Of a DNA stretch of 64,000 nucleotides, positions 10,765 to 47,988 are shown piece after piece. A program made the translations under genes and the position numbers. The DNA comes from an uncultured Gemmatimonadales bacterium (GTDB lineage: Bacteria > Gemmatimonadota > Gemmatimonadetes > Longimicrobiales > RSA9): the NCBI GenBank assembly GCA_963798845.1, contig CAWCUS010000001.1:416001-480000 (forward strand), given 5' to 3'. Positions within the stretch are counted from its first letter, which is position 1, and every line of letters begins with the position of its first letter. The notes beneath the pieces were generated by a model. That model was given only the letters and a program-made list of their open reading frames with translations. It was not told the origin of the DNA and did no database searches.

Positions 10765-10975
10765 CGCAGTTGGGCTCGACCTGCGGTCTCGCAGAGGGGC
10801 TCAGCCCGTTCGGGCTTCGCAGAGGGGCTCGACCTGCGGTCTCGCAGAGGGGCTCGGCCTTCGGCCTCGCAGAGGGGCTCGGCCTTCGGCCTCGCAGAGG
10901 GGCTCGACCTGCGGTCTCGCAGAGGGGCTCAGCCCGTTCGGCCTCGCAGAGGGGCTCGGCCTTCGGCCTCGCAGG
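10765..10975. repeat. Modular hairpin array: 14-nt constant unit TCGCAGAGGGGCTC (7 exact copies) alternating with 8 short palindromes of three types
   Basis: Constant unit starts at 10789, 10817, 10842, 10867, 10892, 10917, 10944. Inserts are GACC-TGC-GGTC, AGCCC-GTTC-GGGCT and GGCC-TTC-GGCC. An inverted copy CCTCTGCGAGGCCG lies at about 10987-11000. Confidence 0.93.
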
Positions 10976-11012
10976 AACTGGGGGCGCCTCTGCGAGGCCG
11001 GAGACCGGGGGC

Positions 11013-13430
11013 CTACGGCATCGTCACGGGCCGCGCTCCCGCCCCCTTAACGTACGTGTCGAACCACGCGATCATCTCGGCCAGCGTGTCCATGATGGAC
11101 TCGCGGGCGCGATAGCCGTGGCTCTCGGCGGGGAGCATGACGAGGCGGGCAGTGCCGCCGAGCCCCTTCATGGCGTGGAACATCCGCTCGCTCTGGATCG
11201 GGAACGTGCCGCTGTTGTTGTCGGCAATGCCGTGGATCATGAGGAGCGGCTCGTCGATGTCGCCGGCGTGCATGAACGGCGACATCGCGTAGTAGATGTC
11301 CGGCGCGTCCCAGTACGTGCGCTGCTCGTTCTGGAAGCCGAACGGCGTGAGCGTGCGGTTGTACGCCCCGCTGCGGGCAATGCCGGCGCGGAACAGGTCG
11401 GAGTGGGCCAGGAGATTGGCGGTCATGAACGCGCCGTAGCTGTGCCCGCCCACGCCCATCCGGTCGCGGTCGCCGACGCCCATGTCGACCAGCTTGTCCA
11501 CGGCGGCCCGGGCGCTGGCCACCAGCTGCTGGACGTACGTGTTGTTGGCCGTGTCGCCGCCGATGATGGGCATGCTCGGACCGTCGAAAACGGCGTAGCC
11601 CTGAGTCAGGAAGAACAGGTGGCTCGGCCCGCTGAACGTGGTGAAGCGATTCTCCGAGGAGCGCACCTGCCCCGCGGCTGCCGCGGAAACGAACTCTCGC
11701 GGGTAGGCCCACAGGACCACGGGCAGCCGCTGGCCCGCCTGGTGGCCGGCCGGAAGGTAGAGCGTCCCGCTCAGCGGCACGCCGTCGGCGCGCTCGTAGA
11801 CCACGAGCTGCTTGGTGATCCCGCGCAGCTCGGGCGCGGGGTCCTCGAACGCCGTGACGGCGACGTCGCCGTGGCCCGGCAGGTCGAGCACGTGGTAGTT
11901 CGGCGGCTCGGTCTTCGACTCGCGACGCGTGAGCACGCGCCCCGCGCCCGCGTCCAGCACGTCCACCACGCCCTCGTACTCCTCGGCACCGGACTGCCAC
12001 AGCCGCTCGGTCCGGAAGGTCTCCAGGTCGAGGCGGTCGAGGAACGGCCGGTCGCCCTCGGGCAATGCGCCGTCGCCGGCCAGGTAGATGGCGCTCCCAT
12101 CCTGGAGCAGGACCCGCTCGCCCGTGGCCGTGGACACCATCTGCGGCCGCCCCGGGTCGCCGTACGCGTCCTCACGGCTCCGGTCCCACAGCAGCCGTCG
12201 CTCCGCCCGCGGCCGGTCGGGGTCGAAGACCCACGTGCGCATCCACTGCCGGGCGCGCTCGTAGTCGCTCAGCAGGGCGACGCCGTTCCCCCACTCGATC
12301 CCCGCGTACCGCTCTTCCGTCCGGGCGAGCTCGCGCGGCTCACCCATGAACGGCGCATCCAGCTGGAGCACCTGGTCGCGGAACTCCGCGGGCCGGTCGG
12401 GATCACCGCCGTCCAGCGCTTCGGCCCACACGAGCGAGCCGGGCAGGAGGGGTCGCCATTCCAGGCTGCGAGGACCGGATCGCACCCCGCGGATCGGAAC
12501 GTCGTCGGCGATCGGCAGGTCCGCGAGCTGCCGGAGGAGGTCGCCCTTCCGGTTCCAGATCTCGTACGCCACCGGGAAGTCGTAGACGGGAACGAGGTAG
12601 GAGTAGGGGCGGTGCACACGCCGGACGAGGAGATAGTCTCCGCCGGGCGCCGGCGACGCCCCCTGGAAGACGGCGGGGCTCCCCACCCGCGCGGCCTGAC
12701 CGGTGGCCACGTCGACCAGCGCCACCTGCGACGTCATGTAGTAGTCGAAGAGCGCCTCGTCGTGCGGGTTTTCCAGCATGTCCTCGTACGTCCGGACGGG
12801 TGCGACGCGCCCCGTGGTCTCCTGAACGACGGGGCTCGCCGGCACCTTCGGCTCCGGCGGCGGTGCGCCGCGGTCGGCGGGCACCATGAGGCACACGAGG
12901 CTGGCCCCATCGGGCATCCAGTCGCAGCCGCCCGCGACGGCGTTGATGTCCCGGGCGACGAGCCTGCCCGCACCCGTGTTCACGTCCACCACCCACTGGT
13001 CCACCCCGTCGTCCCGGGTGAGCGGGAAAGTGAACCGGCTGCCGTCCGGAGACCACGACGCGAGGCCGGGGGCGCCGCCCCCGACGTTCACCGGCCTGTG
13101 CGTGCCGTCCGCCAGGCGCACCAGCTCGAAGCCGGTGAGGGTGACGTAGGCGTCGGCCCGGCCGTTGGTCGCCGGGTTGATGCGCAGCCCCGCGATCCGA
13201 AGCATCGGCTGGGCGACTTCCGAGAGTGGCGGCATGCTGGCGCGGTCCTGGAGCAGCAGCCACTCGCCTTTCGGACCGGCGGTCGCGATCGGGAACGGCG
13301 GCGCGTCGAGGATCTGGGGGATCGGCGCCGGCGGCATCCGGTAGCCGCCCTGGGCGGCGAGAGGAGCGGAGAAAGCTGCGACCAGCGCGGCCAAGGTGGC
13401 GACCGCGTGGACGGGAGACGAACGAGGCAT
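11013..13430 (-). CDS. S9 family (prolyl oligopeptidase-like) serine peptidase, secreted
   Basis: Signal peptide; beta-propeller region; GGHSYGAFM nucleophile; [28 protein letters not shown]. Confidence 0.92.
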
Positions 13431-13650
13431 CGTCGGCACTCCGTTCTTGGCTCAGCCTGCTGGCCTGGCCAGTGGCTCGGGGGTGGACGCGACGCGCGGT
13501 CGCGCCGGGGTCTCGGCGCGACGCCAGGATCGCGCGATCGCTTCGGCTTCGCCTCGGAGGATCACCCTTCCGCGGGAGCCGTGAAGATGGGACGTCCGGC
13601 CTTCGAAGGCCACCCCCCTGCAGGGCCCCCTGGAGAGTCCGGGCCCCGCT

Positions 13651-14214
13651 CTACCTCACCCGCTCTATGTACGTCCCGCCTTCCGGATCCACGCGCACCG
13701 TCTCGCCCTTGTCGACGAAGGCGGGGACCTGGATGGTGACGCCATTCTCCAGCTTGGCGGGCTTGGTCACGGAGGTGCGGGTGTCGCCGCGCACGCCGGG
13801 CTCGGTCTCCACGACCTCGAGCTCGAGTGTGCGCGGGAGCTGGACTCCGAGCGGGGAGCCTTCGAGGAACTCGACCTGGACGTTCATGTTCGGGATCAGC
13901 CACTGAGCGGAGTCGCCGAGGGTGTCGTCGCCGATGGGGAACTGCTCGAAGGTCTGATTGTTCATGAAGTAGTGGTGATGGCCGTCATGGTACAGGAACT
14001 GGAGCTCCTGCGTCATCATCTCGGCCTTCTCCACCGTGTCGGCGGACCGGAACCGGTGCTCGAAGATGGTCCCCGTGAGGATGTTCTTCAGCTTGGTCTG
14101 CATGTACGCCGGGCCCTTCCCCGGCTTGATGTGCTGAAACTCCATGACGCGGCAGGGCTCACCCTCGTGCATGATCACCGTGCCGCGGCGGAGCTGTGAG
14201 GCCGACATCGCCAT
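13651..14214 (-). CDS. efp: Elongation factor P
   Basis: [34 protein letters not shown] motifs. Confidence 0.97.
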
Positions 14215-14343
14215 GGATGCGCGTGCTCCAGTTCACGGTCCAGAATACGAACAGCCCCGCGTACGCGAGGCCTCGAAGCGCCGGAATGTCGCCGCACGAC
14301 GCGCACCGGGCAAGCCCCCGCGGCTGCGCCGATCGGGGTGGGA

Positions 14344-15270
14344 TCAGCCGGGCGGGCGAGCGCCGGGGGTGTCGGCGGCCGCTCTCCGGTGGTCGTCCAG
14401 CCACGTCACGATCCGGGGCCACACCTCGACGCGCGCCGCCCGGCTCACAACGATGCCCGGGTGGTCGAAGTCCTCGCTGAACCCGGTCTCCCGGCCGGCG
14501 AGGACGTAGCTGGCATCGGCGCTTCCCATCATCTCCACCACGCCGCGGCAGGCGTCGGGCGGCGCGAACACGGTGTCGCCGGCGCCGCTCATGGCGAGGA
14601 CGGGCGTGCACACCGACTGGAGCCGCTCGACGTAGTCGGTGCCGTCGCAGCCCCGCCACTCGCGTTTCAGGTTCCACGTCATCCACTGCGCCATGACGCC
14701 GGGGAGCTCGTCCTCGGGGCCGAGCCCGAGCAGGCGAGCGGGGAAACGGCCCAGGAGCCGGGAGGCGGCCCGGATCGTCCACGCGCCCACTCGTCGCCAG
14801 CGCTGAAGCCAGGGCACGGGCGTGCCCAGGACGACCACGCCGGCCACCCGCTCGCGCAGCGCGGGCTCACCCGCGAGCGCGATGAGCATGGAGGCCCCTC
14901 CCGCGGAGTGGCCCACGAGCAATACGGGAGCGCCATCGGGTGCGGCCGCGGAAACGGCGGCGGGCACGTCCAGTCGGCCCCAGTGCTCGAATCGCCATGG
15001 ACGGCCGCGCGCCCGCTCGCTTCCGCCGTGGCCCCGCGGGTCGAGGACGACGGCCTCGTACCCCGCGTCGGCGAGGTGCCACGCCATTCCGCGGCCGCCG
15101 GTGCCGAGCCAGAAGGTGTGATTCGAGAAGGTGCCTGGCATCAGGACCACGGGCGGCGCCGTCGGCTCGCCCACGCGGTAGAGCGCGAGGCGCGTGCCGT
15201 CGCCAGCCCGGACCTGGTCCCGCCGGACGCGCTCCGTCACCGCGGCGGAGCGGGTCGGCCCGCGCCGCAC
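14344..15270 (-). CDS. Alpha/beta fold hydrolase
   Basis: DPRGHGGS, VGHSAGG nucleophile elbow, catalytic D..H near the C-terminus; start codon uncertain. Confidence 0.85.
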   Translation of the reverse strand: MRRGPTRSAAVTERVRRDQVRAGDGTRLALYRVGEPTAPPVVLMPGTFSNHTFWLGTGGRGMAWHLADAGYEAVVLDPRGHGGSERARGRPWRFEHWGRLDVPAAVSAAAPDGAPVLLVGHSAGGASMLIALAGEPALRERVAGVVVLGTPVPWLQRWRRVGAWTIRAASRLLGRFPARLLGLGPEDELPGVMAQWMTWNLKREWRGCDGTDYVERLQSVCTPVLAMSGAGDTVFAPPDACRGVVEMMGSADASYVLAGRETGFSEDFDHPGIVVSRAARVEVWPRIVTWLDDHRRAAADTPGARPPG

Positions 15271-15274
15271 GGCA

Positions 15275-16219
15275 TCACGTCAGCGCCGGAGCGACGATCC
15301 GCACGCCGCGCTCCACGGCCGTGGCGGTCATGGGCGTGGCCCCGGCGGGGTCGCCGTCGATCTGGACGGGAATGGCGGGGTCGCTCTCGATGGTCACCTC
15401 GCGGGCCTGGAAGTGGATGAGCCGGTCGTCGGCGCCTCGGAAGTGGCGGCCCATGGCCTTCCACAGCAGCGGCGGCACGTCAATGACGTTGCGCGGGGCG
15501 AGGATGACGACATCGAAGAGTCCGTCCTGCCAGGAGCGGCGGGGCTGGGGGGCGAGGGGGAGCCCGAACGGGATGAACTGGGCGAACAGCTCGCCCACGT
15601 TGGCGAGCATCACGCTCACCGCGCGGACCTCGACCACCTCTCCGTCCGCGGTGATCCGGAAGTCCACCGGCTGTGCCGTCAGCGCCTCCTTCACCGCGGC
15701 GAAGATGTACGCCGCAAAACCCCAGCGCTCCTTCAGCCCGCGGGTGGCGGAGCCCATGACCGCGGCATCGAAGCCGGCGCCGGCGACGAGGGCGAAGACG
15801 CGGTCGCCCACGCGCCCGAGGTCGACCGACGCCGCCTCGCCGCGGACGGCCACCTCCACCGCCTCCTCGATCCCTTCGGGGATGCGCAGGTTGCGGGCGA
15901 CCTGGTTGCCGGTTCCGCGGGGGATGATGGCCAATGGGGTCTCGGTGCCGGCCAGCCCCGTGACCGCCTCGGCAATGGTGCCATCGCCGCCGACCACGCA
16001 AACGCAGCGGTAGCCGAGAGCCGCGGCCTCGCGGGCGAGAGCGGTGCCGTGCCCGGCGTGGGCGGTCTCGGCCAGGTCGAACGCGACGCGGCGCGCGGCG
16101 AACGCGCCGCCGATCAGCCGGCGCAGGCGAGCGGGGTCTTCCTGCCCGGCCGCCGGATTCAGGATGATGAACGTGCGGCCGGCGTAGGGGCCGGCCGCAC
16201 GGTCGCGGTCGGGCGTCAC
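15275..16219 (-). CDS. Diacylglycerol kinase family lipid kinase (YegS/DgkB-like)
   Basis: ILNPAAG, VGGDGT, IPRGTGN, GAGFDA, QIDGD motifs. Confidence 0.92.
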   Translation of the reverse strand: MTPDRDRAAGPYAGRTFIILNPAAGQEDPARLRRLIGGAFAARRVAFDLAETAHAGHGTALAREAAALGYRCVCVVGGDGTIAEAVTGLAGTETPLAIIPRGTGNQVARNLRIPEGIEEAVEVAVRGEAASVDLGRVGDRVFALVAGAGFDAAVMGSATRGLKERWGFAAYIFAAVKEALTAQPVDFRITADGEVVEVRAVSVMLANVGELFAQFIPFGLPLAPQPRRSWQDGLFDVVILAPRNVIDVPPLLWKAMGRHFRGADDRLIHFQAREVTIESDPAIPVQIDGDPAGATPMTATAVERGVRIVAPALT

Positions 16220-16232
16220 CGGCGGTACGGGC

Positions 16233-17093
16233 TCAGGCCTCGCCGCCCTGGCGCGCCATTTCCTCGAGCCGCGCCACCCGCTCCTCCGTGGAGGGGTGCG
16301 TGCTGAAGAGCGAGGAGAACGCGCGTCGCTGACCGGCGAGCGGATTGACGATAGCCAGCGATGCCCCGGCCGGATTGATGTTCATGGGGATGCGCCGGCT
16401 GTACGCGTCCAGCTTCTCGAGCGCGTGTGCGAGCCCCATTGGGTTGCCGCTGATCTCCGCGCCGGTGCGGTCCGCCTGGAACTCGTTCTGCCGGCTGATG
16501 GCGAACTGGATCATCATCGCGGCGATCGGCGCGACGATCGCCGCCGCCAGCGCGCCCAGACCCCCACCGTCGCGGTCGCGCCCGCCGTAGCCCCCGAAGA
16601 TCGCGCCCCACGCCACCATGCGCCCGATCATGGCCACGGCGCCCGCCATGGTCGCGGCCACGGTGCCCGTGAGCATGTGGTGGTGCTTGACGTGGGCGAG
16701 CTCGTGGGCCAGCACGCCCTCGATCTCATCCTTGTCCACCAGCTTCAGGATGCCGGCCGTGCAGCACACCACCGCGTGCTCCGGGTTCCGCCCGGTGGCG
16801 AACGCGTTGGGCTGCTCCTGTGCCGAGATGGCCAGGGTCGGCATGGGGAGCCCCGCCCGCTGTCGGAGCCGGTCCACCAGGTCGTAGAGCTCGGGCACCT
16901 GCTCGCGATCCACCACCTTCGCTCGATACATGCGGAGGACGGCCTTGTCGCTCCACCAGTACATGCCGAAGTTCATGATGGCTGCGAACGCGAAGAAGAT
17001 GACCGCGCCGCTCTGCCCGCCAATGTACCCCCCGAGCACGACCAGCAGGGCCGTGAGCCCCGCCATCAGGAGGAATACCTTTGTACGCTGCAT
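16233..17093 (-). CDS. htpX: Zinc metalloprotease HtpX
   Basis: QPNAFATGRNPEHA, GVLAHELAH, ISRQNEFQAD, LFSTHPSTEERV. Confidence 0.95.
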   Translation of the reverse strand: MQRTKVFLLMAGLTALLVVLGGYIGGQSGAVIFFAFAAIMNFGMYWWSDKAVLRMYRAKVVDREQVPELYDLVDRLRQRAGLPMPTLAISAQEQPNAFATGRNPEHAVVCCTAGILKLVDKDEIEGVLAHELAHVKHHHMLTGTVAATMAGAVAMIGRMVAWGAIFGGYGGRDRDGGGLGALAAAIVAPIAAMMIQFAISRQNEFQADRTGAEISGNPMGLAHALEKLDAYSRRIPMNINPAGASLAIVNPLAGQRRAFSSLFSTHPSTEERVARLEEMARQGGEA

Positions 17094-17167
17094 TGTCGCT
17101 CGCTACCGGTTCAGGGTCGCTCGTCAACCTTTGAAGATACCCCGGCCAGGGCGCCCCGGTCCACCGG

Positions 17168-20100: not shown

Positions 20101-21598
20101 AGCGTCCCCGCGCCAGCAGCAGGCTCCCGCCCCCGCGGAAGCGGGACTCCTGCTCTCCTCGCCGGAGGGTCGCGTCGCCGTCCACGGTCAGCCCGCCCGC
20201 CAGGGTGCCGTTGGCGCTGAACCGGCCGCGGGCCTCGCCCCGGAGGCGGAGCCCGGGGACGAGCCGCGCCACCTGCGCCAGGTCGAGGTGCTCCACGGTG
20301 CCGCGAAGTCCGGCCGCGGCGTACGGCCGGGTGGCGCGCACCCGGCCCCGCCACTGCACGGCCGCGCCGGACCCCTTCTCTCCCGCGGCGACGAAGCGGA
20401 CGTTTCCGCGCGTGTCCAGCGCCGAGACCGGCCCCTGCACTTCCACGGTGCCGATGAGGAGGCCGTCGAGCGGGAGGTCCATGGGGACGAGGCTGCGCAG
20501 CAGGTCCACGTTCAGCGGGGACGCGCGCAGGTTCACGTCCGTGAAGTAGAGGGTATCCCCGGTCACGACGCCGAAAGAGCCGGCGAGCTCCGAGTCGCCG
20601 GTGTGAAGGCTGGCGTCGCTGACCAGAAAGAGCGTGCTCCCCGGGCTCCGCGTCTGGAGCCGGAGCTCGAGCTTCCCGCCCCCCTCGGTGGGCAGGGACG
20701 GGTAGAGCCACTGGAGGTCGCCGAACGAAAGGTGGTCCGCACTGGCGCGGATGTCGTAGCGGCGGCCCTGGTCGCCCAGGATCATCTGCCCGACCACGGA
20801 CAGCTCGGAGTCCGGCAGCTTCACTCTCGGCATGTCGAAGCTGATGACCGAGTCGCGGAGCGTGACGGTGCCCTCCACCTGCCGGAGGTCCGCCGGCGTC
20901 TTCCAGACGTACAGGCGACCGCTGAAGTCGCCGATCTGGACGAGGTGACCCGCCTCCTCCGGCGACTCCCAGACGACGCGCGGCAAGCGCGCCTGCAGGT
21001 GCTCCACCCGGATCGTCCGCACCGTTCCGCCCGGCACGTCCTCGAAAATCAGGCGAGCGGTGTCGGACGCCGCCACGGGTCCCGACGGCTCCCACGGGGT
21101 ACGGACCACGACATTGCCGTCGATGATGCCGATGTCGTTGATGAGCACCAGCCGGGTCGGCGCCGGGGCGGTCGTGTCCGCAGCGGTGGTGTCCCCGGGG
21201 AAAACGCGCTGGTAGTTCCATCTCTCCTCCCCCGGGAGGCGCTCGATCGTGATGTCCGGGGAGTACAGCGTGAGCCGGTCGAAGGTCAGGTTGCCGCCGA
21301 TGAGCGTGCGCACGTGGTAGGCGAGGCGGGCGCTGTCCACGCGCATGAACGGGCGGCCGAGGCTGTCGTCGATGGCGACGTCGCGGAGCACGACGCCGTG
21401 CAGCAGCCCTGCGCTGGTGACCGATCCGACGCGAAGCTCGCCATGGACGATGCCGCGCAGCTGGCCGACCGCGATCCGCCCCGCCTGGCGCACGCCCAGG
21501 TCCGTGCGGGTGAGCACGTACACGGCCACCGAGAGGAGGACCACCAGCACCGCCACACCCACCAGCACCCACCGGAGCACCCGTCGAGCGCTCGCCAT
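17168..21598 (-). CDS. tamB: Translocation/assembly module TamB (AsmA-like)
   Basis: 1476 aa with N-terminal TM anchor, beta-taco repeats and a C-terminal TamB domain (GTIEFVG..DPDLDVEA, VLTGTLQNPRV); coupled to the upstream Omp85 gene. Confidence 0.85.
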   Translation of the reverse strand: MASARRVLRWVLVGVAVLVVLLSVAVYVLTRTDLGVRQAGRIAVGQLRGIVHGELRVGSVTSAGLLHGVVLRDVAIDDSLGRPFMRVDSARLAYHVRTLIGGNLTFDRLTLYSPDITIERLPGEERWNYQRVFPGDTTAADTTAPAPTRLVLINDIGIIDGNVVVRTPWEPSGPVAASDTARLIFEDVPGGTVRTIRVEHLQARLPRVVWESPEEAGHLVQIGDFSGRLYVWKTPADLRQVEGTVTLRDSVISFDMPRVKLPDSELSVVGQMILGDQGRRYDIRASADHLSFGDLQWLYPSLPTEGGGKLELRLQTRSPGSTLFLVSDASLHTGDSELAGSFGVVTGDTLYFTDVNLRASPLNVDLLRSLVPMDLPLDGLLIGTVEVQGPVSALDTRGNVRFVAAGEKGSGAAVQWRGRVRATRPYAAAGLRGTVEHLDLAQVARLVPGLRLRGEARGRFSANGTLAGGLTVDGDATLRRGEQESRFRGGGSLLLARGRSRVDLRLESAPVALDLLNEQFPTLVSMVGEATGVLTLTGPLDSLELGADLRTPAGRVAVTGHGSLEGDVPRYSMRGEVTDFSLERLLPSLPETQVSARFQLDGDGRAVADARATLAVDVAAARVAGIPVYRAVANVSLDRGLLNVDSLTVRSAVGDAVASGSFGVVEGREGELRFSVRADSVEPLEPVLFPDPGEHALGEPLEPRLGGRVAVEGTAWGGIQRWKVQGRASGEDVLYGDVRLHSAHADFDGGPGDFSTNATLDSLRASGRTLPVVQASLRYTRGSGELALQARGAEAQELELAGTFQRTDPGVRVQLHRLAVQLKDARWTLADTVLATVGRRGVAVDSLVLRRSPSSARIRVAGVLPWRELETGDTLPASLAVDLDSVRVGELLRLAQTDSVVDGVITGQFRVTGTARAPLIRGWLASRPFRYAGAVLDSAGAEMRYEDRLITARFAGWRDGDAVVTADASVPADLAFMSTQERLLELPLAVHIRADSVPAGLLSFLTPGFTGLTGWVDAAIDMAGTGRSPELGGELRLTDGSAFFEPLLVRYRGVEAVARMRPGRQVDLTATLRTGGGSADVNGTLDLTHPSDPGFDLDVMARQFEASKRRDVAAVADGAVHVGGRYARPVVSGDLRLVRGEMNLDEIWRRYQIVQLDTSMFQLFDSTTVSFRPSPPNPFLKNLVVTNLNINASRELWLRSRELDVEVSGALEVEADLGTGDLRLTGSLQTVRGTYDLQVAQRVPARRFDIRSGTIEFVGTPGIDPDLDVEAAYRVRRAQGDPIDVVAVLTGTLQNPRVRLTTDSDIQVSQADLASYLLFGRSGAELTQSESDVLSSGMMTGLGLGLIRPALTGFASSELQRMANSLLGIDYLALRAPEYQLGDYGASGLLANTQVELGFDATRDLTLILSGRIPAQQESQQSWTRLLGARIQYRFRPTWTGEFYLEDRFARTPSFGLAEIDDRKVWGLSLVREWGY

Positions 21599-36341: not shown

Positions 36342-36953
36342 ATGAACGGTTCCGGCAGAGCGATTGGAGTGCTGCTCGTGGCGCTCCTGGCCGTCGGGGG
36401 CACCGCTTGCGCCAAGCGCGTCTCGCGCATCGACCCATCCAGCGTCACTGACCTGTCGGGTCGCTGGAACGACACGGATTCCCGGCTCGTGGCGAACGCG
36501 CTCATCGAGCAGACGCTCGGCGGCGGCTGGGCGGCGCGGTACACGGGCGCTCACGGAGGAGAGTCGCCGGCGGTGATCGTGGGCAGCTTCCGCAACCGCA
36601 CGCTGGAGCACATCCCGGTGAACACGTTCATCAGCGACCTGGAGCGGGCGCTGATCAACTCGGGTGCCGTGAAGATGGTGGCGAGCCCGGTGGAGCGGGA
36701 CGAGATCCGGGCGGAGCGGACGGACCAGCAGGAGAACGCCCGGGCCGATACGCGGGCGAGGATGGCGCAGGAGCTGGGTGCGAACTACATGCTCCAGGGC
36801 GACATCACGGCCATCGAGGACGAGGAGGGCCGGGAGAAGGTGGTCTACTATCAGGTGGACGCGACGCTCACGGACCTGGAGAGCAACGTGAAGGTCTGGG
36901 CCGGTCAGCACCGGATCAAGAAGTACATCGAGCGGCCCCGGATCGGGTGGTGA
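36342..36953 (+). CDS. Penicillin-binding protein activator LpoB-like lipoprotein
   Basis: Lipobox-like [48 protein letters not shown]. Confidence 0.8.
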
Positions 36954-36964
36954 GGAGGCTCCCC

Positions 36965-37783: not shown

Positions 37784-37805
37784 GCGGGTGACGCGTGTGC
37801 GCCTG

Positions 37806-39257: not shown

Positions 39258-39380
39258 ACCGCCCTTTGCCCCTGCCCGCCGTTCTGATAGCTTTCCCGTC
39301 CACGGTCCCTCGAACTCGCCGGAGCATGGCGCGCCTTCAAAGCCAAGGGCACACCACTCTATCCCACCGGCTCCACTGAC

Positions 39381-41141: not shown

Positions 41142-42102
41142 CGTGAAGGCGTTCCTGCTCTCCTGGGAGCTCGAGCCGACCATCATCATCGGCATCGTGA
41201 TGGCGGCCGGACTGTACATACGCGGATGGCGGCGGCTCAGGAAGCGGGGACGCGGAGGCAGAATCCTGCGGCCGTGGAGGGCGTGGTGCTTCGCCGGCGG
41301 CCTGGCCTCGGTGGCGCTGGCGCTCCTCTCCCCGATCGCCACGTTCGACTCGATCTTCTTCTTCATGCACATGATCCAGCACGTTCTGCTGATCATGATC
41401 GCAGCGCCCCTGATCTGGCTCGGCGCGCCCATGCTCCCGACGCTCTGGGCGTTCGACCGCCCCACGCGGCATCGGCTGGGGAATCTCTTCCGGCGGCGGA
41501 ACCCGGTCCACCGCGTGTTCCATTTCCTGACGCGGCCGGTCGTGGCGCTGCCGATCTTCGTGCTGGTGCTCCTGGGATGGCACTTCCCGCCACTCTACGA
41601 CGCCGCGCAGGGCCGAACCTTGCTCCACGACCTCGAGCACCTGTTCTTCTTCGGCACCGCGCTGCTCTTCTGGTGGCCGGTCATCCAGCCGTCCGGAGGG
41701 AAGCGGCGCCTGAGCTACGCCGCCGGCATCCTGTACATCTTCCCCGCCAAGCTGGCAGGTCTGATCCTCGGCGCCGGGCTCTCGCTGGCGAGGGAGCCGG
41801 TATACGACTTCTACGCCCGGCAACCCCGCGTCTGGGGGATCTCCGCGCTCGCCGACCAGCAGGCGGGCGGGCTCATCATGTGGGTGTTCGTGGGCGTGCT
41901 CTTCATCATCCCGCTGCTCGCGCTCGTGCTCATGATGATGCGGGAGGACGAGGGCGACCTGTGGACCCCGCAGGCCGTCCGCGATGCCGAGGCTGCCGCG
42001 CGCACCGGCGTCGGGCCGGGCGCCAACCGCCCGGCGGCGGCTGCCGTCTCGCGCAGCGGGGCAGTGAAGACCGCGACACCGGTGGCCGAGCCCGGGCTGT
42101 GA
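41134..42102 (+). CDS. Cytochrome c oxidase assembly factor CtaG (caa3-type)
   Basis: LLSPI..F..HMIQHVLLIMIAAPL, WHFPPLYD, HDLEH, DQQAGGLIMW. Confidence 0.88.
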   Translation: MGDVKAFLLSWELEPTIIIGIVMAAGLYIRGWRRLRKRGRGGRILRPWRAWCFAGGLASVALALLSPIATFDSIFFFMHMIQHVLLIMIAAPLIWLGAPMLPTLWAFDRPTRHRLGNLFRRRNPVHRVFHFLTRPVVALPIFVLVLLGWHFPPLYDAAQGRTLLHDLEHLFFFGTALLFWWPVIQPSGGKRRLSYAAGILYIFPAKLAGLILGAGLSLAREPVYDFYARQPRVWGISALADQQAGGLIMWVFVGVLFIIPLLALVLMMMREDEGDLWTPQAVRDAEAAARTGVGPGANRPAAAAVSRSGAVKTATPVAEPGL

Positions 42103-42614
42103 GCAGGCGGGACGGAAGAACCCGCCGGTCCATGGTCGTCGCGGCGGCGCTCCTGGTCGGCGGGACGGCTCCGCTGCTGGCCAACGGGGGAAAGGTGCGC
42201 GTCTCCCGCGCCCCAGTCGGCCCGTATTTCGTCTCCGTCTACAGCAGCCCGACGCCTTCGCGGACGGGTGGGCAGGACGTGAGCGTGCTGGTGCAGGATT
42301 CGGCCGACCGACAGGTGGACGTCCCGCTCACGCTCGAGGTGCGCCGCGCGGGAGAGCCGGCGGGCTCCCGCACATTCGCCGTCACGCGCGGAGCGGCCAC
42401 GAACAAGCTGTTCAAGGCCGCGAAGTTCGCGCTGGAGGAGCCAGGGGAATGGGATTTCACGGTACGGGTGGGCGACCTGGGGCAGGTCTCGTACCGGGCG
42501 ACGGTGGAGCGCTCGACCCTCCTGGACCACCCGTACCTCATCGCCATGCTCGTCCTGGTCCCCGTCCTGCTGGTCGGCTGGCTGGCGAGTCGGCGGGGGG
42601 ACGCCTCTGGCTGA
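42099..42614 (+). CDS. Exported protein, YtkA/FixH-like Ig domain with C-terminal TM
   Basis: Signal peptide, SPTPSRTG..DVSVLVQD, ATNKLFKAA, EPGEWDFTVRV, C-terminal TM; GTGA overlap with the ctaG-like gene. Confidence 0.55.
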   Translation: MSRRDGRTRRSMVVAAALLVGGTAPLLANGGKVRVSRAPVGPYFVSVYSSPTPSRTGGQDVSVLVQDSADRQVDVPLTLEVRRAGEPAGSRTFAVTRGAATNKLFKAAKFALEEPGEWDFTVRVGDLGQVSYRATVERSTLLDHPYLIAMLVLVPVLLVGWLASRRGDASG

Positions 42615-42621
42615 CCGGCGC

Positions 42622-42981
42622 TCAGTCGCGCAGCGCCGCCACGATGTACCCGGCCACGAACGCTATGGCCAACGAGCGCCACGGCTCGCGGGTGACGGCG
42701 TGGCGGAAGTCCTTCAGCGTCGCCTTCCCCCATAGCTCGTCCTTCTTCCGGCTGAGCTCCGCTTTCTCCCGTCCAAGCCGCACCTCCAGCGTATCCAGCG
42801 TCGCTGACATCCTGGCCCGCGTGCGCTGGATCTCCCGTCGCATGGCGTCGGGAGTGTCCGCGGGCGATGCCGAAGGGCCGCCATCGGCCGCTCCCCTGCC
42901 GTCCATTGCCCGCTCGGCGCGCGTCGAGCGAGGAAGCGCGTGGCTCGGATCCGGATTGTTGAGTTCGATGGAATCGGCCAT
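42622..42981 (-). CDS. DUF3618-like protein
   Basis: PDAMRREIQRTRARMSATLDTL, C-terminal EPWRSLAIAFVAGY helix. Confidence 0.7.
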   Translation of the reverse strand: MADSIELNNPDPSHALPRSTRAERAMDGRGAADGGPSASPADTPDAMRREIQRTRARMSATLDTLEVRLGREKAELSRKKDELWGKATLKDFRHAVTREPWRSLAIAFVAGYIVAALRD

Positions 42982-43129
42982 GGCTCATCGTGGTGAGAGT
43001 TGTGCCGGCGCAATCGGTTGCAAGAGCCGCGCCCCTCGCCCGCACCTTTCCACGGCCCCTCGCGGGCGGCACACGCATTGCACCGTTCGCGGGTACTGAT
43101 CCGAGCCCCGACCTCCCCGGAGGAAACGC

Positions 43130-43645
43130 ATGGCTGCCACGGAACCGACGACCCGAGCCCCATCCCGCTGGCGCTCGCCACCCCCGGACCACCCGCTGCC
43201 GCGCGGGCAGCGGCCCCCCCGCCGCCCCGCCGTGGAGGAGCAGGACGCCGGCGTCACCGACCTCCTGCGGAGCCTCGCCGACGACACCCGCACGCTGGTC
43301 CGCCAGGAGCTGGACCTCGCGCGCATGGAGGTCGTGCGCACGGCCCGGCACCTTACGGTCGATGGGATCTGGATCGCCGCGGGGGCCGGCATCGCGGCGC
43401 TGGGCGGGGTGGTGGTGGTCCTGGGGCTGGCGCTCCTGGTCGGGTATTTCCTGGACTCCTACTGGCTGGGCACCCTGATCGTCGGCGGGTTCCTCCTGCT
43501 GGTGGGCGCGGTGGGAGCGCTCGTGGGCGTACAGCGGCTGCGGTCCCGGGAGCTGGCGCCGAAGCGGACGGTGGACTCGCTGCGGGCCGACGCCACCTGG
43601 GCCCGGACGGAGGCGGATGACTTCAAGCAAGCACTGAAGGAGTGA
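43130..43645 (+). CDS. Holin-X/YqjE-like two-TM membrane protein (phage holin family annotation)
   Basis: DLLRSLADDTRTLVRQELDLARME, two TMs, APKRTVDSLRAD; AGGA RBS. Confidence 0.8.
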   Translation: MAATEPTTRAPSRWRSPPPDHPLPRGQRPPRRPAVEEQDAGVTDLLRSLADDTRTLVRQELDLARMEVVRTARHLTVDGIWIAAGAGIAALGGVVVVLGLALLVGYFLDSYWLGTLIVGGFLLLVGAVGALVGVQRLRSRELAPKRTVDSLRADATWARTEADDFKQALKE

Positions 43646-43647
43646 CC

Positions 43648-44157
43648 ATGGCGGAATTCACTGATCGGCCGCAGCGGGACACCCCCGAGCACCGGGAGCC
43701 GGAGCGGCACGGCGAGCACCGTGCGCCGGAGCGGCACACCGCCGACTACCCCGAGCACGAGACACGCCGTGCCACGGGGATGGGCAACCCTGGCCGGTTC
43801 CCGGATGAGCACCCAATGGAGGGGGAGCACGGCGAGGAAATGCGGGCGTTTCAGCAACGGCGGAGCGACGGTGCCGCGGAATCTCGCGTGCGCCTCGCCG
43901 CCGGCGACCGGATCTCAGACGTGTCGAGTCGAGTCCGCCACCTCGGCGAGGCGGCCGCCGACCGGAACCGCTTCCTCGCCCCCACACGGCCGCTCGCCCG
44001 TGGCGCGGCGGAGGGGCTGGACACGGCCGCGGAGTACGTCCGGACGCACCCGGTCAGCGAGATGCGCGGGGACCTCGAGTCCGAGGTGCGGCGCCACCCG
44101 CTGGCGGCCATAGCCGTGGCGTTCCTGGCCGGCTATACACTGCGTCGGATCTTCTGA
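43648..44157 (+). CDS. ElaB/YqjD-like tail-anchored protein
   Basis: Disordered N-terminus, AAEYVRT..DLESEVRRHPLAAIAVAFLAGY C-terminal anchor; AAGGAG RBS. Confidence 0.65.
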   Translation: MAEFTDRPQRDTPEHREPERHGEHRAPERHTADYPEHETRRATGMGNPGRFPDEHPMEGEHGEEMRAFQQRRSDGAAESRVRLAAGDRISDVSSRVRHLGEAAADRNRFLAPTRPLARGAAEGLDTAAEYVRTHPVSEMRGDLESEVRRHPLAAIAVAFLAGYTLRRIF

Positions 44158-44182
44158 GCCGGTTCCCCGAAACGTCGTAGGG

Positions 44183-44222
44183 CGCGGCCCTGCCGGTCCG
44201 TTCCGGGTCCGGCAGGGCCGCG
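44183..44222. terminator. GC-rich stem-loop between convergent genes
   Basis: CGCGGCCCTGCCGG ... CCGGCAGGGCCGCG 14-bp inverted repeat; no clear U-tract. Confidence 0.55.
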
Positions 44223-44226
44223 TGCG

Positions 44227-45096
44227 CTAGTGGATGACGTCGCCGATCCGACCCGGGCGGATGTTGCGCAGGAAGGCGAAGGGGCGGCGGTGCTGGGGAT
44301 CGTACGAATAGTAGACCACCGTGGCCTTGCCCCGCAGGCGCCACCCGGCGAGGAACCCCCAGTAGCGGGAGTCGACGCTGTCGTCCCTGTTGTCGCCCAT
44401 CATGAAGTAGTGGGCCGGCGGCACGACCAGCGGGCCCCAGTTGTCTCGCGTCGGGTGGCAACCCGGTTGGAGGCTCTCGTCCTCCGGCACCCGGTAGGCG
44501 CCGGAGATGTCGGGGCTCAGGTGCACCGGCTCGCCGCACTGCCACCGCATCCACGGGTGGGCCACGTCGCCCTCGTCGTCGGTGTGCTCCACGTACGGCT
44601 CGTCCTGCCGCACCCCGTTGATGTAGAGCACCTTTTCCTTCATGAGCAGCGTGTCCCCCGGAACGCCAATGATCCGCTTCACGACGTCCAGGCCGGGATC
44701 GTGTGGCGGCCGGAACACGGCTACATCGTGCCGCTTCGGGTGGCTGTAGCCCGGGAAATGGTCCTGCGTGAACGGGATCAGCGGGCCGTATCCCAGCTTG
44801 TTGAGTATCAGGAAGTCGCCCACCAGGAGCGTGTGCTCCATCGACGACGACGTGATCACGAACGTCTGGACCAGGAACGTGCGCAGCACCAGGAACAGGA
44901 GAAGCGCCGCGATCGCCGACTTCGTCCAGTCCATGGCGACCTGACTGCGCGTGCGCGGGCGTCCCAGCCCCCCCGGTCGCACAGGCGGGCCATCCGCAGC
45001 CGCCGCCGTCGCCACCTCGTCCCGATCGCTCATCTCCGCCTCCGCCCCTCCGGCACCGCCGGCGGCGCTCCGTGAACCCTTACGCTTCTTCGCCAC
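44227..45096 (-). CDS. lepB: Signal peptidase I
   Basis: ITSSSMEHTLLVGDFL, VVKRIIGVPGD, MMGDNRDDSVDSRYWG. Confidence 0.95.
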   Translation of the reverse strand: MAKKRKGSRSAAGGAGGAEAEMSDRDEVATAAAADGPPVRPGGLGRPRTRSQVAMDWTKSAIAALLLFLVLRTFLVQTFVITSSSMEHTLLVGDFLILNKLGYGPLIPFTQDHFPGYSHPKRHDVAVFRPPHDPGLDVVKRIIGVPGDTLLMKEKVLYINGVRQDEPYVEHTDDEGDVAHPWMRWQCGEPVHLSPDISGAYRVPEDESLQPGCHPTRDNWGPLVVPPAHYFMMGDNRDDSVDSRYWGFLAGWRLRGKATVVYYSYDPQHRRPFAFLRNIRPGRIGDVIH

Positions 45097-45177
45097 GCTC
45101 CGTCCCCGATCCTGTGTACTCAGCCGCTCACTACGCGGTTCGCGTCCCCCGGGTTCCGGCGGCCGCCGCTGCTCCGC

Positions 45178-45771
45178 TCACCTGCCGGCACGCGCCAGCG
45201 CTTTCCGGATGAGCGCCTTCGCATCCTCTTCGGGACCGTCGTCCTCGATGCTCCGGCGGACGGCCGCGCCCGCATCCATCGCCGAATAGCCGAGCGCCAC
45301 CAGCGCACCGACCGCCTCCTGCGCCGCCGCGCCTTTCACCGACGGACCGGCCGCGCCCAGCGCCAGGTCGTCCAGCTTGTCACCGAGCTCGAGCGCGATG
45401 CGCTCCGCGGTCTTCTTGCCGACCCCCGGGACGCGAACCAGCGTCGCCAGCTCACGGTTCGTGATGGCGCGCACCAGCGCTGCCGGAGTGAGCGTGGACA
45501 TGAGCGAGAGCGCCAGCCGCGGACCGACGCCGGACGCCCCCAGGAGGCGGCCGAAGAGGACCCGCTCCGCATCACCCAGAAAGCCGAACAGCAGCAGGTC
45601 GTCCTCGCGCACCACCTGGTACGTCAGCAGCTGCACCTCCTCGCCCACCCGCGCCAGCTTCTCGAACACCGACAGCGGGATCTCGATCTCGTACGCCACG
45701 CCGCCCGCCGTCATGACCTCCACCTGCGCCGGATCGCGGCGCAGGAGCGTGCCCCGGATTCTGCTGATCAT
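45178..45771 (-). CDS. ruvA: Holliday junction branch migration protein RuvA
   Basis: MISRIRG, GGVAYEI, VREDDLLLFGF, SGVGPRLAL, VPGVGKKTAERI, ALVALGY. Confidence 0.97.
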   Translation of the reverse strand: MISRIRGTLLRRDPAQVEVMTAGGVAYEIEIPLSVFEKLARVGEEVQLLTYQVVREDDLLLFGFLGDAERVLFGRLLGASGVGPRLALSLMSTLTPAALVRAITNRELATLVRVPGVGKKTAERIALELGDKLDDLALGAAGPSVKGAAAQEAVGALVALGYSAMDAGAAVRRSIEDDGPEEDAKALIRKALARAGR

Positions 45772-46274
45772 CGACCGACCACCGCCCGCCCGAGCGCGGA
45801 CAGACGCCCGGTGTGCAGGTGACAGAGCGCCACGGCCACGGCATCCGCCGCGTCGGAGGGAGACGGCGGCTCCTTCAGCCGCAGCAGCTTCTTGACCATG
45901 AACTGCACCTGCTCCTTGGTGGCGCGTCCCGTGCCGGCAATCGCGTTCTTGATCTCCGCCGGCGAGTAGTCGGCCACGGGCAGGTCCAGGAGTCCGGCAG
46001 TCAGCAGTATGGCCCCGCGCGTCTGGCCGAGGAGGACCGTGGTCCGAACGTTCTTCCCGTAGAAGATGCTCTCCACCGCCACCACATCCGGGCTGTGACG
46101 CGCCAGTACGTCCCCGAGCCCCTCGTGGATCTGGCGGAGCCGCTCCGGCAGCTCCGCCTGCGACCGAGTCCGGATCACGCCGCATTCCAACAGCGACACG
46201 GCGCCGCCGTCCCCGCGGACGACGACGCCGTATCCCGTTGCGGCCGTTCCCGGGTCGATCCCGAGAACCTTCAA
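45768..46274 (-). CDS. ruvC: Crossover junction endodeoxyribonuclease RuvC
   Basis: VLGIDPG..TGYGV, VAVESIF, GTGRATKEQV, DAADAVAVALCH. Confidence 0.97.
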   Translation of the reverse strand: MKVLGIDPGTAATGYGVVVRGDGGAVSLLECGVIRTRSQAELPERLRQIHEGLGDVLARHSPDVVAVESIFYGKNVRTTVLLGQTRGAILLTAGLLDLPVADYSPAEIKNAIAGTGRATKEQVQFMVKKLLRLKEPPSPSDAADAVAVALCHLHTGRLSALGRAVVGR

Positions 46275-47020
46275 GCGTCCACCTCGCTCAGCACCTTCTC
46301 ATCAATGTCCGCGTTGGTGTGGACCTTCTGGATGTCGTCCACGTCGTCCAGCGCATCGAGGAGCCTCAGCAGCTTCTCGGCGTCGTGACCCTCCACGCGG
46401 ACGGTCGCCTTCGGGATCATGGCCAGCTCGGCCTCGTCGAACTCGATACCCTGCGCCTTCAGCCCATCCTGCACCGCGTGGAAGCTCGCCACGTCCGTGA
46501 GCACCTCGAACGCCTCGTCCTCCCGCGTCATGTCGTCCGCCCCCGCCTCCAGCGCCGCCATCATCGTGGAGTCCTCGTCGTAGCGGGTTGCGTCCACGTA
46601 GATCCGGCCCCGCCGCTCGAACTGCCACGCCACCGAGCCGCTCTGGCCCAGGTTGCCGCCGTGCCGCTCCAGGACGTGGCGAAGCTCGGCGACAGTGCGG
46701 TTCAGGTTGTCCGTAAGCGCTTCCATGTACAGAGCCACACCGCCCGGTCCGTACCCCTCGTAGGCGATTTCCTCGTAGTTCACCCCCTCCAGCTCGCCCG
46801 TGCCCCGTCCGATGGCACGGTCGATGTTGTCCTGCGGCATGTTCGCCGCCTTCGCCGTGTCCACCGCCAGCCGCAGCCGCGGGTTCATCTCCGGATCGCC
46901 GCCCGCCTCCCTCGCCGCCACCGTGATCTCACGGATCAGCTTGGTGAAATGCTTGCCCCGGCGGGCGTCGTTGACCGCTTTCTTGCGCTTGATCTGCGCC
47001 CACTTCGAATGTCCAGCCAT
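46271..47020 (-). CDS. yebC: YebC/PmpR family protein
   Basis: MAGHSKWAQIKRKK, NPRLR, YEGYGPGGVA, TDNLNRT. Confidence 0.96.
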   Translation of the reverse strand: MAGHSKWAQIKRKKAVNDARRGKHFTKLIREITVAAREAGGDPEMNPRLRLAVDTAKAANMPQDNIDRAIGRGTGELEGVNYEEIAYEGYGPGGVALYMEALTDNLNRTVAELRHVLERHGGNLGQSGSVAWQFERRGRIYVDATRYDEDSTMMAALEAGADDMTREDEAFEVLTDVASFHAVQDGLKAQGIEFDEAELAMIPKATVRVEGHDAEKLLRLLDALDDVDDIQKVHTNADIDEKVLSEVDA

Positions 47021-47244
47021 GGATCCTCAGCTCTCCGCGTTCAGCACTCGCTCACGACGCGGGCCCCGCGCGGGACCCGCCCGACGCCGGCGCGGGGCCT
47101 ACCGCCCCGCTGTGACGCAGTCCACGGAGGCGGGGTCCAGAGGATGGTTCCGGCCGCGCGATCACGCGCGGACTTCATGCTGTGCTCGAGGCGTTTCATT
47201 GGGAGTAACCCGGGGAACGGGGCGGACATCGGCTCCAGCCGCGG

Positions 47245-47272
47245 AATATACCGGCGGTTCTGGGTGAATCAA
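47245..47272 (-). promoter_or_regulatory. Putative sigma70 promoter for yebC-ruvC-ruvA-lepB
   Basis: Minus strand TTGATT-16 nt-TATATT in otherwise GC-rich DNA. Confidence 0.5.
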
Positions 47273-47280
47273 AGGCCGCG

Positions 47281-47537
47281 ACGCGGCTCGTGGCGCAGTT
47301 CGACGGCGCGGCTCGGAACGCGGCTCGTGGCGCAGTTCGACGGCGCGGCTCGGAACGCGGCTCGTGGCGCAGTTCGACGGCGCGGCTCGGGACGCGGCTC
47401 GTGGCGCAGTTCGACGGCACGGCTCGGAACGCGGCTCGTGGCGCAGTTCGACGGCACGGCTCGGAACGCGGCTCGTGGCGCAGTTCGACGGCACGGCTCG
47501 GAACGCGGCTCGTGGCGCAGTTCGACGGCACGGCTCG
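47281..47537. repeat. 37-bp tandem repeat, 7 copies (last 35 nt): ACGCGGCTCGTGGCGCAGTTCGACGGCRCGGCTCGGA
   Basis: Units start at 47281, 47318, 47355, 47392, 47429, 47466, 47503; R=G in the first three copies and A in the last four. Confidence 0.95.
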
Positions 47538-47666
47538 CTGCGCTCGCCGACGCCGCCCGCGCTGCGGGATTCGAACCGTGGGCTCGCTTCAGCTCCCCCA
47601 CGGCCGGCAAAGCCGGATTCGAGCCGCCGCCCCCTGTCACCTCTCGCGGCCGCCCGTCCTCGAATC

Positions 47667-47988
47667 CGAATCCCCCGAAGGGGTGGCCGCGAGCGCAGCG
47701 AGCCGGCCATCGAATCCCCCGAAGGGGGTGGCCGCGAGCGCAGCGAGCCGGCCATGAATCCCCCGAAGGGGGTGGCCGCGAGCGCAGCGAGCCGGCCATC
47801 GAATCCCCCGAAGGGGGTGGCCGCGAGCGCAGCGAGCCGGCCATCGAATCCCCCGAAGGGGGTGGCCGCGAGCGCAGCGAGCCGGCCATCGACTCCCCCG
47901 AAGGGGGTGGCCGCGAGCGCAGCGAGCCGGCCATCGACTCCCCCGAAGGGGGTGGCCGCGAGCGCAGCGAGCGGGCCATCGACTCCCC
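47667..47988. repeat. 45-bp tandem repeat, 7 copies plus partial: CGAMTCCCCCGAAGGGGGTGGCCGCGAGCGCAGCGAGCCGGCCAT (two hairpins per unit)
   Basis: Units start at 47667, 47711, 47756, 47800, 47845, 47890, 47935; hairpins CCCCC-GAA-GGGGG and TGGCC-GCGAGC-GCA-GCGAGC-C-GGCCA. Confidence 0.95.

Follow-up and report, generated by a model that had tools for sequence, protein, structure and literature searches.

Why should two tandem arrays of different sequence and period, located in different intergenic regions, repeat one and the same hairpin plan? The question is raised by a 64-kb stretch of DNA (the window, G000:C1:416001-480000) from the genome of an uncultured Gemmatimonadales bacterium (G000; 4.26 Mb, 70.6% GC, 6 contigs). 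An original prediction, made from the window alone, described the motif GCGA-stem-loop-stem-GAGC in an array at 10765-10974 on the minus strand (array 1) and in a 45-bp array at 47667-47988 on the plus strand, considered the two arrays unrelated, and proposed that they form a single-stranded DNA structure read by a protein. On the evidence presented below, the hairpin repeats look like selfish repeat DNA and not like ordinary slippage repeats. The explanation that we favor, with about an even chance of being correct, is that the arrays constitute two related lineage-specific families of selfish non-coding minisatellites built of hairpin units, which resemble repetitive extragenic palindromes (REPs) and serve as the arms of cassettes enclosing four-helix-bundle genes of the PF05635 family.

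The two array families and their excess over chance

Array 1 (period 25, 8.2 copies) consists of units of 25-28 nt, in which GCGA-stem-loop-stem'-GAGC is followed by the 6-nt linker CCCTCT on the minus strand; boundaries, periods, and copy numbers of the window arrays were obtained by Tandem Repeats Finder (TRF) and direct reading of the sequence. Three hairpin types, GACC-GCA-GGTC, GGCC-GAA-GGCC, and AGCCC-GAAC-GGGCT, are mixed in this array together with one hybrid unit. It is one of 30 arrays of at least three units each that form family 1, besides which small clusters are scattered over the genome. The constant part of family 1 is the 14-nt joint GAGCCCCTCTGCGA, with a variable hairpin between successive joints and periods of 21-29. 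Exact copies of the joint number 182 in G000 (87 + 95), as compared with 0 + 1 for the reversed control. The longest direct tandem arrays reach 20 units with a fixed 6-nt linker. All family-1 arrays are intergenic, apart from arrays in the linkers of metH. A census in the frame CTGCG-X-core-G-Y-GCCC (perfect stem of at least 2, loop of up to 5) yielded 253 well-formed units.

The 45-bp array (period 45, 7.2 copies) is one of 12 arrays with periods of 40-52 that form family 2. A family-2 unit is composed of TCGAAY, hairpin A (mostly CCCCGC-GNA-GCGGGG), and hairpin B; in the 45-bp array these are TCGAAT, CCCCC-GAA-GGGGG, and GGCC-GC-GA-GC-GCA-GC-GA-GC-C-GGCC, respectively. Hairpin B has the form GA-stem-loop-stem-GA in 10 of the 12 consensus units, always on the linker strand, and its loops are GNA or GNNA in nine of these ten arrays. 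The inner stems vary (GC, GCGGC, GCCGC, CGGC, GGCGCC, and GGCGGC), as do the outer pairs (GC/GC, CGG/CCG, TCGC/GCGA, GCC/GGC, and CC/GG), which are reduced to a single one in one array and absent from three. The 45-bp unit shares the 15-nt module GCGAGCGCAGCGAGC with 21-bp family-1 arrays at C1:373972 and C2:829993, and the core of its hairpin B is identical to the unit of those arrays. Therefore, the two window arrays are related modules and not converged unrelated repeats, contrary to the original prediction; both types are also arranged head-to-head (see below).

The descriptor applied to the window (GCGA, stem of 2-7, loop of 3-5, complementary stem, GAGC) has 16 matches: seven in array 1 on the minus strand (GACC-GCA and GGCC-GAA three times each, AGCCC-GAAC once), one at 47533-47547 on the minus strand, seven in the 45-bp array on the plus strand, all of them GC-GCA, and one further match, at 21375, that looks like a chance occurrence. 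This search recovered in place every hairpin quoted in the original prediction, including a copy that caps a neighboring 37-bp array. In the whole genome, a loose descriptor has 488 matches, compared with 202-267 in each of 10 dinucleotide-preserving shuffles; the enrichment is only about 2-fold, since a stem of 2 bp readily arises by chance. Of all 620,376 perfect hairpins whose stem is at least 3, 340 have the flank pair GCGA/GAGC, versus 61.6 expected under the assumption of independent flanks (5.5-fold). Hence the motif is indeed more frequent than in shuffled sequence.

These counts bear on one alternative, namely, that the arrays are ordinary minisatellites, i.e., independent slippage repeats sharing a motif by chance or owing to GC-rich composition. 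The small enrichment of the descriptor with 2-bp stems agrees with it, as does the abundance of other tandem repeats in G000, where 193 TRF rows have a period of at least 15 and at least 3 copies and many of these are unrelated to the hairpin families. On the other hand, the same 14-mer is found at 30 loci, with 0-1 matches in the reversed control and in relatives, and the stems and the G.A step covary, as described in the next section; the ordinary-minisatellite explanation is consequently highly improbable.

Hairpin structure, polarity, and genomic context

The units vary in their stems and retain the rest of the hairpin. Perfect stems were found in 236 of the 259 parsable in-array units, the remainder having one mismatch (14 units) or being indel-containing or hybrid (9 units); the units of one array are copies and not independent events, so the independent evidence resides in the loci (30 + 12) and in the distinct stems. 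At least 12 different perfectly complementary stems occur within one constant frame, among them GGCC, AC/GT, GC, GGGC/GCCC, GAC/GTC, GGCCGC/GCGGCC, GACC/GGTC, GGCCCC/GGGGCC, AGCCCC/GGGGCT, and AGCCC/GGGCT, and the number of unit types is 63. The closing pair is 5'-C/G-3' in all 27 unit types that have at least two copies. Most loops are GNA (GCA, GAA) or GNNA (GTCA, GCCA, GCAA, GGAA); the exceptions are GAAT (16), AAA (8), CGAA (7), ATCA (4), AAC (3), and CCA (2), as well as TCC (12), which belongs to a fully paired variant. The claim that every loop is GNA or GAAC is thus correct for the window but too narrow for the genome.

The positions X and Y of the census frame, which contribute to the G.A oppositions, are A,A in 214 of the 253 units, C,C in 25, A,C in 4, and C,A in none; the other 10 units look like chance matches. 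In the C,C variant (GCGC...GCGC), both G.A oppositions become G-C pairs. Such covariation is as expected of bases that are opposed in a helix. Intermediates of the G.U type are nearly absent, with one G.T in 259 units. Given the many stems in one frame and the paired change of the two A's, the predicted stem covariation and the definition of the repeats as a structural family distinct from simple slippage both stand. The C-GA-G context favors sheared pairs in both DNA and RNA. Mini-hairpins GCGNAGC and GCGNNAGC are described as exceptionally stable in DNA (PMC13037366), and the units GC-GAA-GC and GC-GCA-GC are those very stable heptamers (PMC13037366; PMC3201870).

The most conserved portion of a family-1 unit is the joint and not the hairpin (182 exact copies), which is what might be expected of sites acting in double-stranded DNA. 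The 14-nt joint or its G4/C4 tract would bind a nucleoid or topology protein or would form a G-quadruplex or i-motif with hairpin loops, and GA...GA would be no more than part of a conserved non-palindromic site. Tracts of GGGG/CCCC do recur every 21-29 nt in family-1 joints, a spacing that would in principle permit G-quadruplexes with hairpin loops on the G-rich strand and i-motifs on the GA strand; the 3' flanks of 27/30 arrays are C-rich on the same strand; and several proteins reportedly bind bacterial interspersed mosaic elements (BIMEs; PMC2817692). The self-complementary variable core (236/259), the paired change of the two A's to C, and the presence of GA...GA with different neighbors and a different linker in family 2 are left unexplained, and we consider such sites distinctly improbable.

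Family-1 arrays are polar. The joint variant CCCCCCTGCG replaces CCCCTCTGCG mainly at the 5' end of the array as read on the GA strand, with 26 occurrences in 5' halves versus 2 in 3' halves; it is the first joint in 10 and the last joint in 1 of 29 family-1 arrays. Examples are G000:C1:6441, C6:1016924, and C6:1158910, and window array 1 is free of CCCCCCTGCG variants. This one-sided polarity suggests directional growth or conversion. In addition, 27 of 30 family-1 arrays are followed by 40 nt rich in C on the GA strand (mean C 0.46, G 0.23; for array 1, this flank is window 10725-10764), a feature that simple slippage does not explain. At one of the cassettes considered below, the C-rich tract is already present, without the insert, in the sister species of the same genus (G001, about 86% identical to G000 in flanking genes), which hints at a possible target preference.

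The joint polarity (26 vs 2) and the C-rich 3' flanks (27/30) keep alive another possibility, that the arrays are a substrate of directional, protein-guided addition or conversion of units, in which a ring-forming four-helix-bundle protein would read the single-stranded linkers between mini-hairpins; we regard it as unlikely. It seems similarly doubtful to us that the structural grammar (C-GA-G step plus C-GNA-G loop) would take the place of sequence as a recognition code under which new units are added at one array end.

As regards layout, 10 of the 30 family-1 arrays form five head-to-head pairs (a minus array, a gap of 70-330 bp, and a plus array), whereas tail-to-tail pairs are absent; no shared spacer was seen by eye in the five gene-less pairs. 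Both window loci are also head-to-head doublets. Array 1 is paired with a single degenerate unit of the opposite orientation, CGCCTCTGCGAGGCCGGAGACC, read directly at 10984-11006 on the plus strand. In the second locus, which has a family-2 pair, a 37-bp array at 47281-47537 on the minus strand (period 37, 6.9 copies) and two degenerate family-2 units at 47556-47623, also on the minus strand, face the 45-bp array, the plus arm of the doublet. The 37-bp array has a family-2-type linker, GTCGAAC, on the minus strand and lacks clear hairpins; judging the similarity by eye, we read it as a putative degenerate, amplified minus arm of the family-2 doublet. Its end is capped by the solo unit GCGA-GC-GCA-GC-GAGC (47533-47547, minus strand). 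The two degenerate units were likewise read directly, on the plus strand, as CCCGC-GCT-GCGGG-ATTCGAA and CCGGC-AAA-GCCGG-ATTCGAG, and between them lies a minus-strand GA-GC-TGAA-GC-GA hairpin.

The 20 single family-1 arrays are located in 13 co-directional, 6 convergent, and 1 divergent gap, as compared with 74, 13, and 13% of all gaps in the genome, respectively, according to a rough in-house gene caller. Most arrays begin within ~40 nt of a stop codon; in general, gene ends are occupied and promoters avoided. The GA strand is the sense strand in 8 and the antisense strand in 5 of the 13 co-directional gaps, a difference that is not significant. Two minus-strand genes border array 1: an S9 peptidase gene, whose stop is at 11013, and uvrA, whose start is at 10702. 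The 37-bp and 45-bp arrays occupy the 1055 bp that separate minus-strand yebC from plus-strand rpsU, where the doublet sits exactly between two promoter-like sites, one facing yebC directly to the left of the arrays (47272-47245, minus strand) and the other, TTGACA-17-TAGATT for rpsU, directly to the right (48010-48038, plus strand; conserved in G001).

The gene context is relevant to a function at the RNA level, with transcribed arrays serving as stabilizers in 3' untranslated regions (3'-UTRs), as terminators, or as protein sponges. Proximity to stop codons, over-representation of convergent gaps (6/20 single arrays vs 13%), and the sense orientation of array 1 in its co-directional gap would be in line with such a role, and the stability of tandem G.A steps in the C-GA-G context and of GNA/GNNA loops extends to RNA; moreover, E. 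coli REPs are reported as 3'-UTR elements (bioRxiv 10.64898/2026.03.23.713779). Nevertheless, the GA strand is antisense in 5/13 co-directional gaps, the doublet between divergent promoter-like sites is probably transcribed from neither, and arrays also lie in frame within a metH linker. No terminator-like sites (GC hairpin plus T run) were found in or beside the arrays, scans of the window for Rfam families (at the gathering threshold) and for tRNAs gave no match, and G.U-type intermediates are nearly absent (1 G.T in 259 units). An RNA-level role is accordingly a minor possibility. The units abut through a constant 6-nt linker and have no unique spacers, which sets them apart from CRISPR arrays. 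Elsewhere in the window, a cluster of other short tandem repeats (62095-62402; periods 6, 12, 18, and 24) appears by eye to be unrelated to the hairpin families.

Candidate proteins, cassettes, and relatives

Which protein, if any, could act on the hairpins? The original prediction had named an HUH/RAYT-type nuclease (RAYT, REP-associated tyrosine transposase) as a possible reader and suggested that a RAYT or IS200-like TnpA gene might be flanked by the motif. G000 has three Y1/HUH genes (PF01797) of 321-375 aa, located at G000:C1:549712-550716, C5:284171-285298, and C5:398618-399583. They match REP_Tyr_transpos (NF047646) at E-values of 2e-13 to 2e-20, with scores of 50-73 bits that are below the NCBIfam cut-off of 80. 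One of them has a C-terminal match to a helix-turn-helix. Each Y1 gene is bracketed by its own terminal inverted repeats of 29-37 nt, which are unrelated to the hairpins and contain no GCGA hairpin; genome-wide, this inverted-repeat motif occurs at the three genes and in one solo copy only, and no array lies within 5 kb of a Y1 gene. These genes match the TIRYT class, which is described as not tied to REPs (PMC3733652), and not the REP-associated RAYTs. Neither the proposed reader nor a transposase gene flanked by the motif was therefore found, and the link to RAYT/HUH enzymes was rejected. A small GIY-YIG (Ssn-like) nuclease was also considered and rejected, as the sole PF01541 match falls in a 659-aa frame that is probably UvrC.

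These genes bear on the classical REP/REPIN scheme, in which hairpins are recognized as single-stranded DNA and mobilized by a RAYT-type Y1 HUH transposase. The arrays share with REPs short palindromes, a conserved flanking tag and mismatch, high copy number, intergenic location, and inverted doublets; RAYT cleavage requires a tag and unpaired bases near the loop (PMC3733652); and the three genes do match NF047646. However, the scores are below the cut-off, the Y1 genes have repeats of their own and no array in the neighborhood, and the class to which they conform is said not to be tied to REPs. Furthermore, the tag of the hairpins is neither GTAG nor CGTC, and the units are repeated directly in tandem and do not alternate as in BIMEs. 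We rate mobilization by a RAYT as quite improbable.

A different type of gene is associated with the arrays. G000 has three PF05635 genes (four-helix-bundle, rRNA-IVS/Avd-like, where IVS is intervening sequence), and two of them are enclosed by inverted hairpin arrays. The gene at C1:734064 (40 bits, cut-off 33.8) is located between inverted family-1 arrays, in the gap of a doublet, and the gene at C6:1185657 (66 bits; match to PDB 2gsc at an E-value of 2e-5) between inverted family-2 arrays. PF05635 is annotated as "23S rRNA intervening-sequence protein" and is said to resemble Avd, a protein of diversity-generating retroelements (PMC10053308). The window arrays belong to the same families as the cassette arms, sharing with them the 14-nt joint and unit plan (family 1) or the order TCGAAT-hairpin A-hairpin B (family 2). 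No PF05635 match was found inside the window, whose doublets are gene-less, and all three genes of the genome lie outside it. The statement that no cognate enzyme gene is visible in the window was thus accurate as far as the window goes, but the link to the four-helix-bundle cassettes was missed.

The three PF05635 loci of G000 and 29 loci of relatives, 32 in all, were compared with 200 G000 genes of similar size; the counts for the 32 loci rest in part on L159 and L169, which come from genomes flagged as unpublished. Flanking inverted repeats of at least 40 bits were found at 17/32 PF05635 loci versus 2/200 controls, tandem repeats on both sides at 14/32 versus 4/200, and tandem repeats on at least one side at 24/32 versus 41/200. 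The arm units of the relatives are 7, 8, or 12 nt long and differ between loci. The build with tandem or inverted arms is general for PF05635 loci of this bacterial family. In many cases, a PF05635 gene of a relative is no more than a few hundred bases away from the end of its contig (for example, G002:C366, G004:C77, G006:C132, and G007:C17), as expected if repeat arms break short-read assemblies. The only PF05635 gene of G001 (G001:C1:638450-639600, locus L171) has direct and not inverted flanking copies, each with a 23-nt array and a segment of ~130 bp containing an internal palindrome.

The repeat families are species-specific. The joint GAGCCCCTCTGCGA has 0-1 matches in each of 40 relatives, including G001. 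The family-1 unit pattern was found 114 times in G000, once in each of two other genomes, and in none of the remaining 298 in a sample of 301 Gemmatimonadota genomes that does not include G001. The family-2 pattern has 20 matches in G000, one in G001, and none in the 39 other relatives. In G001, the loose pattern has 53 matches versus 99 for the control, and three or four of them are real hairpins. The assemblies of many relatives are fragmented and arrays would collapse in them; even so, one joint would survive the collapse. In public genome contigs there were single matches only, among the matches listed; public metagenome contigs gave 41 single matches, none of them with a hairpin (0/41); plasmid and phage collections, searched with the low-complexity filter on, gave no match; and no sequencing run contained more than 0.08 of the sampled words. 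No paper on these arrays or on a GCGA/GAGC-tagged repeat was found in open-access full text.

G000 and G001 differ at all six loci compared. Array 1, with 8 minus units and 1 degenerate plus unit in G000, corresponds in G001 to a single minus and a single plus unit arranged head-to-head 18 nt apart. Within the yebC-rpsU gap, G001 has 172 bp free of arrays in place of 802 bp in G000. At C1:6441, four diverged units of G001 correspond to 10 units of G000, and one of the G001 stems, GGTCC/GGACC, is complementary in its own way. Both array-armed cassettes are missing from G001: in one case a block of 821 bp is absent between two metH genes, and in the other a block of 884 bp is replaced by 124 unrelated bases. 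The sixth difference concerns metH itself, with one in-frame unit in G001 versus about five in G000.

Family-2 arrays are located inside a split metH of G000 (G000:C6:1183330-1183565 and C6:1184700-1184965). One array, of 51 nt (17 aa), is in frame in the linker preceding the B12-binding domain. A second one, of ~5 units, occupies a loop of the activation domain between ADYV and DYVGF and shifts the reading frame, either as a real disruption or through a homopolymer error. The 12-nt sequence GGCGGATTACGT on both sides of this metH array was considered as a "target-site duplication" and rejected as such: its copies encode the native ADYV and DYVGF, and in G001 one in-frame unit lies between them.

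Origin of the arrays and comparison with known systems

The basic element consists of two arms set head-to-head, which enclose a small gene or none and can each be amplified in tandem. Every unit has a constant frame, CTGCGA...GAGC with a C-rich linker in family 1 and TCGAAY with two hairpins in family 2, around a variable, self-complementary core. For the spread of the hairpin repeats, we infer the following mechanism. A unit of the GA strand would fold into a compact mini-hairpin of two G-C pairs, a tandem sheared G.A step (C-GA-G), a variable stem, a C-G closing pair, and a GNA/GNNA loop, and this fold would be retained because the copying or spreading process acts on folded single strands. 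Arrays would expand locally by slipped-strand mispairing, favored by very stable hairpins, and C-rich intergenic tracts would become new loci through the copying of arms or whole cassettes into them, perhaps aided by the ring-forming four-helix-bundle protein of the cassette or by a host enzyme. A benefit to the cell would not be required.

Several observations weigh against this selfish-repeat explanation. Neither a target-site duplication nor a sharp insertion boundary was found. Just two cassettes carry hairpin-array arms, the third PF05635 gene of G000 having a simple inverted repeat only, and the arm unit of the G001 cassette is not dispersed in its genome, all of its seven matches being at the cassette. 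The four-helix-bundle protein may be a passenger, and its putative role is the weakest step of the explanation. In gene-less doublets, one arm differs from the other in hairpin type, and the polarity of joint variants is not predicted by simple slippage. Template-switch correction of quasi-palindromes could keep stems complementary without selection; alone, it would not preserve the G.A step. Nearest-neighbor DNA folding scores array 1 like shuffled sequence (z of -0.1 and +1.0), the corresponding values being about -3.1 on both strands for the 45-bp array and -1.7 (plus strand) and +2.1 (minus strand) for the 37-bp array; the nearest-neighbor parameters are said to miss the stability of mini-hairpins (PMC13037366). 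Finally, the GA strand lies on the C-rich replication strand, as deduced from skew, in 14 arrays and on the G-rich strand in 6 (p = 0.12), so the strand bias envisaged for such a structure is significant neither for replication nor for the sense strand of neighboring genes (8:5).

The arrays show how, in nature, the shape of a nucleic acid and not its sequence can constrain the evolution of repeats: in two families, stems vary freely, whereas the tandem G.A step, the C-G closing pair, and the G...A loops are kept. Four-helix-bundle/rRNA-IVS cassettes are poorly understood, and here their arms would have escaped and multiplied ~40-fold in one species, providing many natural variants for probing recognition by the protein or by host machinery. 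Should units instead be added directionally, the arrays would represent a new kind of selfish system that combines a repeat and a protein, and a first function would be found for the very large PF05635 family. On the practical side, the arrays break short-read assemblies and enter protein linkers (metH), so they matter for annotation, and because they differ from the sister species at every compared locus, they are possible strain markers.

Palindromic elements of Rickettsia are palindromic repeats that insert in frame into protein-coding genes and do not form tandem arrays. The in-frame family-2 array of 51 nt (17 aa) in the metH linker is comparable to them in its position, whereas its sequence and host are unrelated. 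The REP, BIME, and REPIN elements of Proteobacteria (GTAG/CGTC-tagged, with RAYT) resemble the hairpin arrays in more respects: they are imperfect palindromes of 20-40 nt with a tag beside the stem and a conserved mismatch, and they occur in hundreds of copies, at gene ends, in inverted doublets, and in species-specific bursts. REPs are also found occasionally inside genes, and their tag is a GTAG or CGTC tetranucleotide (PMC3733652). Unlike REPs, the hairpin arrays have the tag CTGCGA...GAGC, form long direct tandem arrays (up to 20 units) with a fixed 6-nt linker, and flank genes for four-helix-bundle proteins and no RAYT gene.

At the level of the single unit, the closest counterparts are the DNA mini-hairpins d(GCGAAGC) and d(GCGNNAGC) and the d(GNA) triloops. 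The units GC-GAA-GC and GC-GCA-GC contain these heptamers, and the C-G closing pair and the G...A loop frame are common to the frequent unit types (PMC13037366; PMC3201870). The known natural cases differ from the chromosomal tandem arrays described here in being single hairpins in single-strand origins of phages and plasmids.

At the level of the cassette, the closest counterparts are the elements variously described as 23S rRNA IVS with an open reading frame (ORF), S23p, PF05635, or Avd-like, in which a small PF05635 gene is likewise placed inside inverted arms of tandem units and which are likewise present or absent between close relatives. The Coxiella IVS carries, beside its S23p ORF, tandem GACAGAT heptamers that differ in number from strain to strain, and it has been proposed to be of mobile origin (PMC4990558). 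In contrast to the 23S rRNA IVS, all loci studied here are between or inside protein genes and none is in an rRNA gene. The arm units of G000 are self-folding hairpins of 21-29 or 44-52 nt and not plain repeats of 7-12 nt, and, unlike the arms of other cassettes of this type, they are dispersed as gene-less arrays at ~40 loci.

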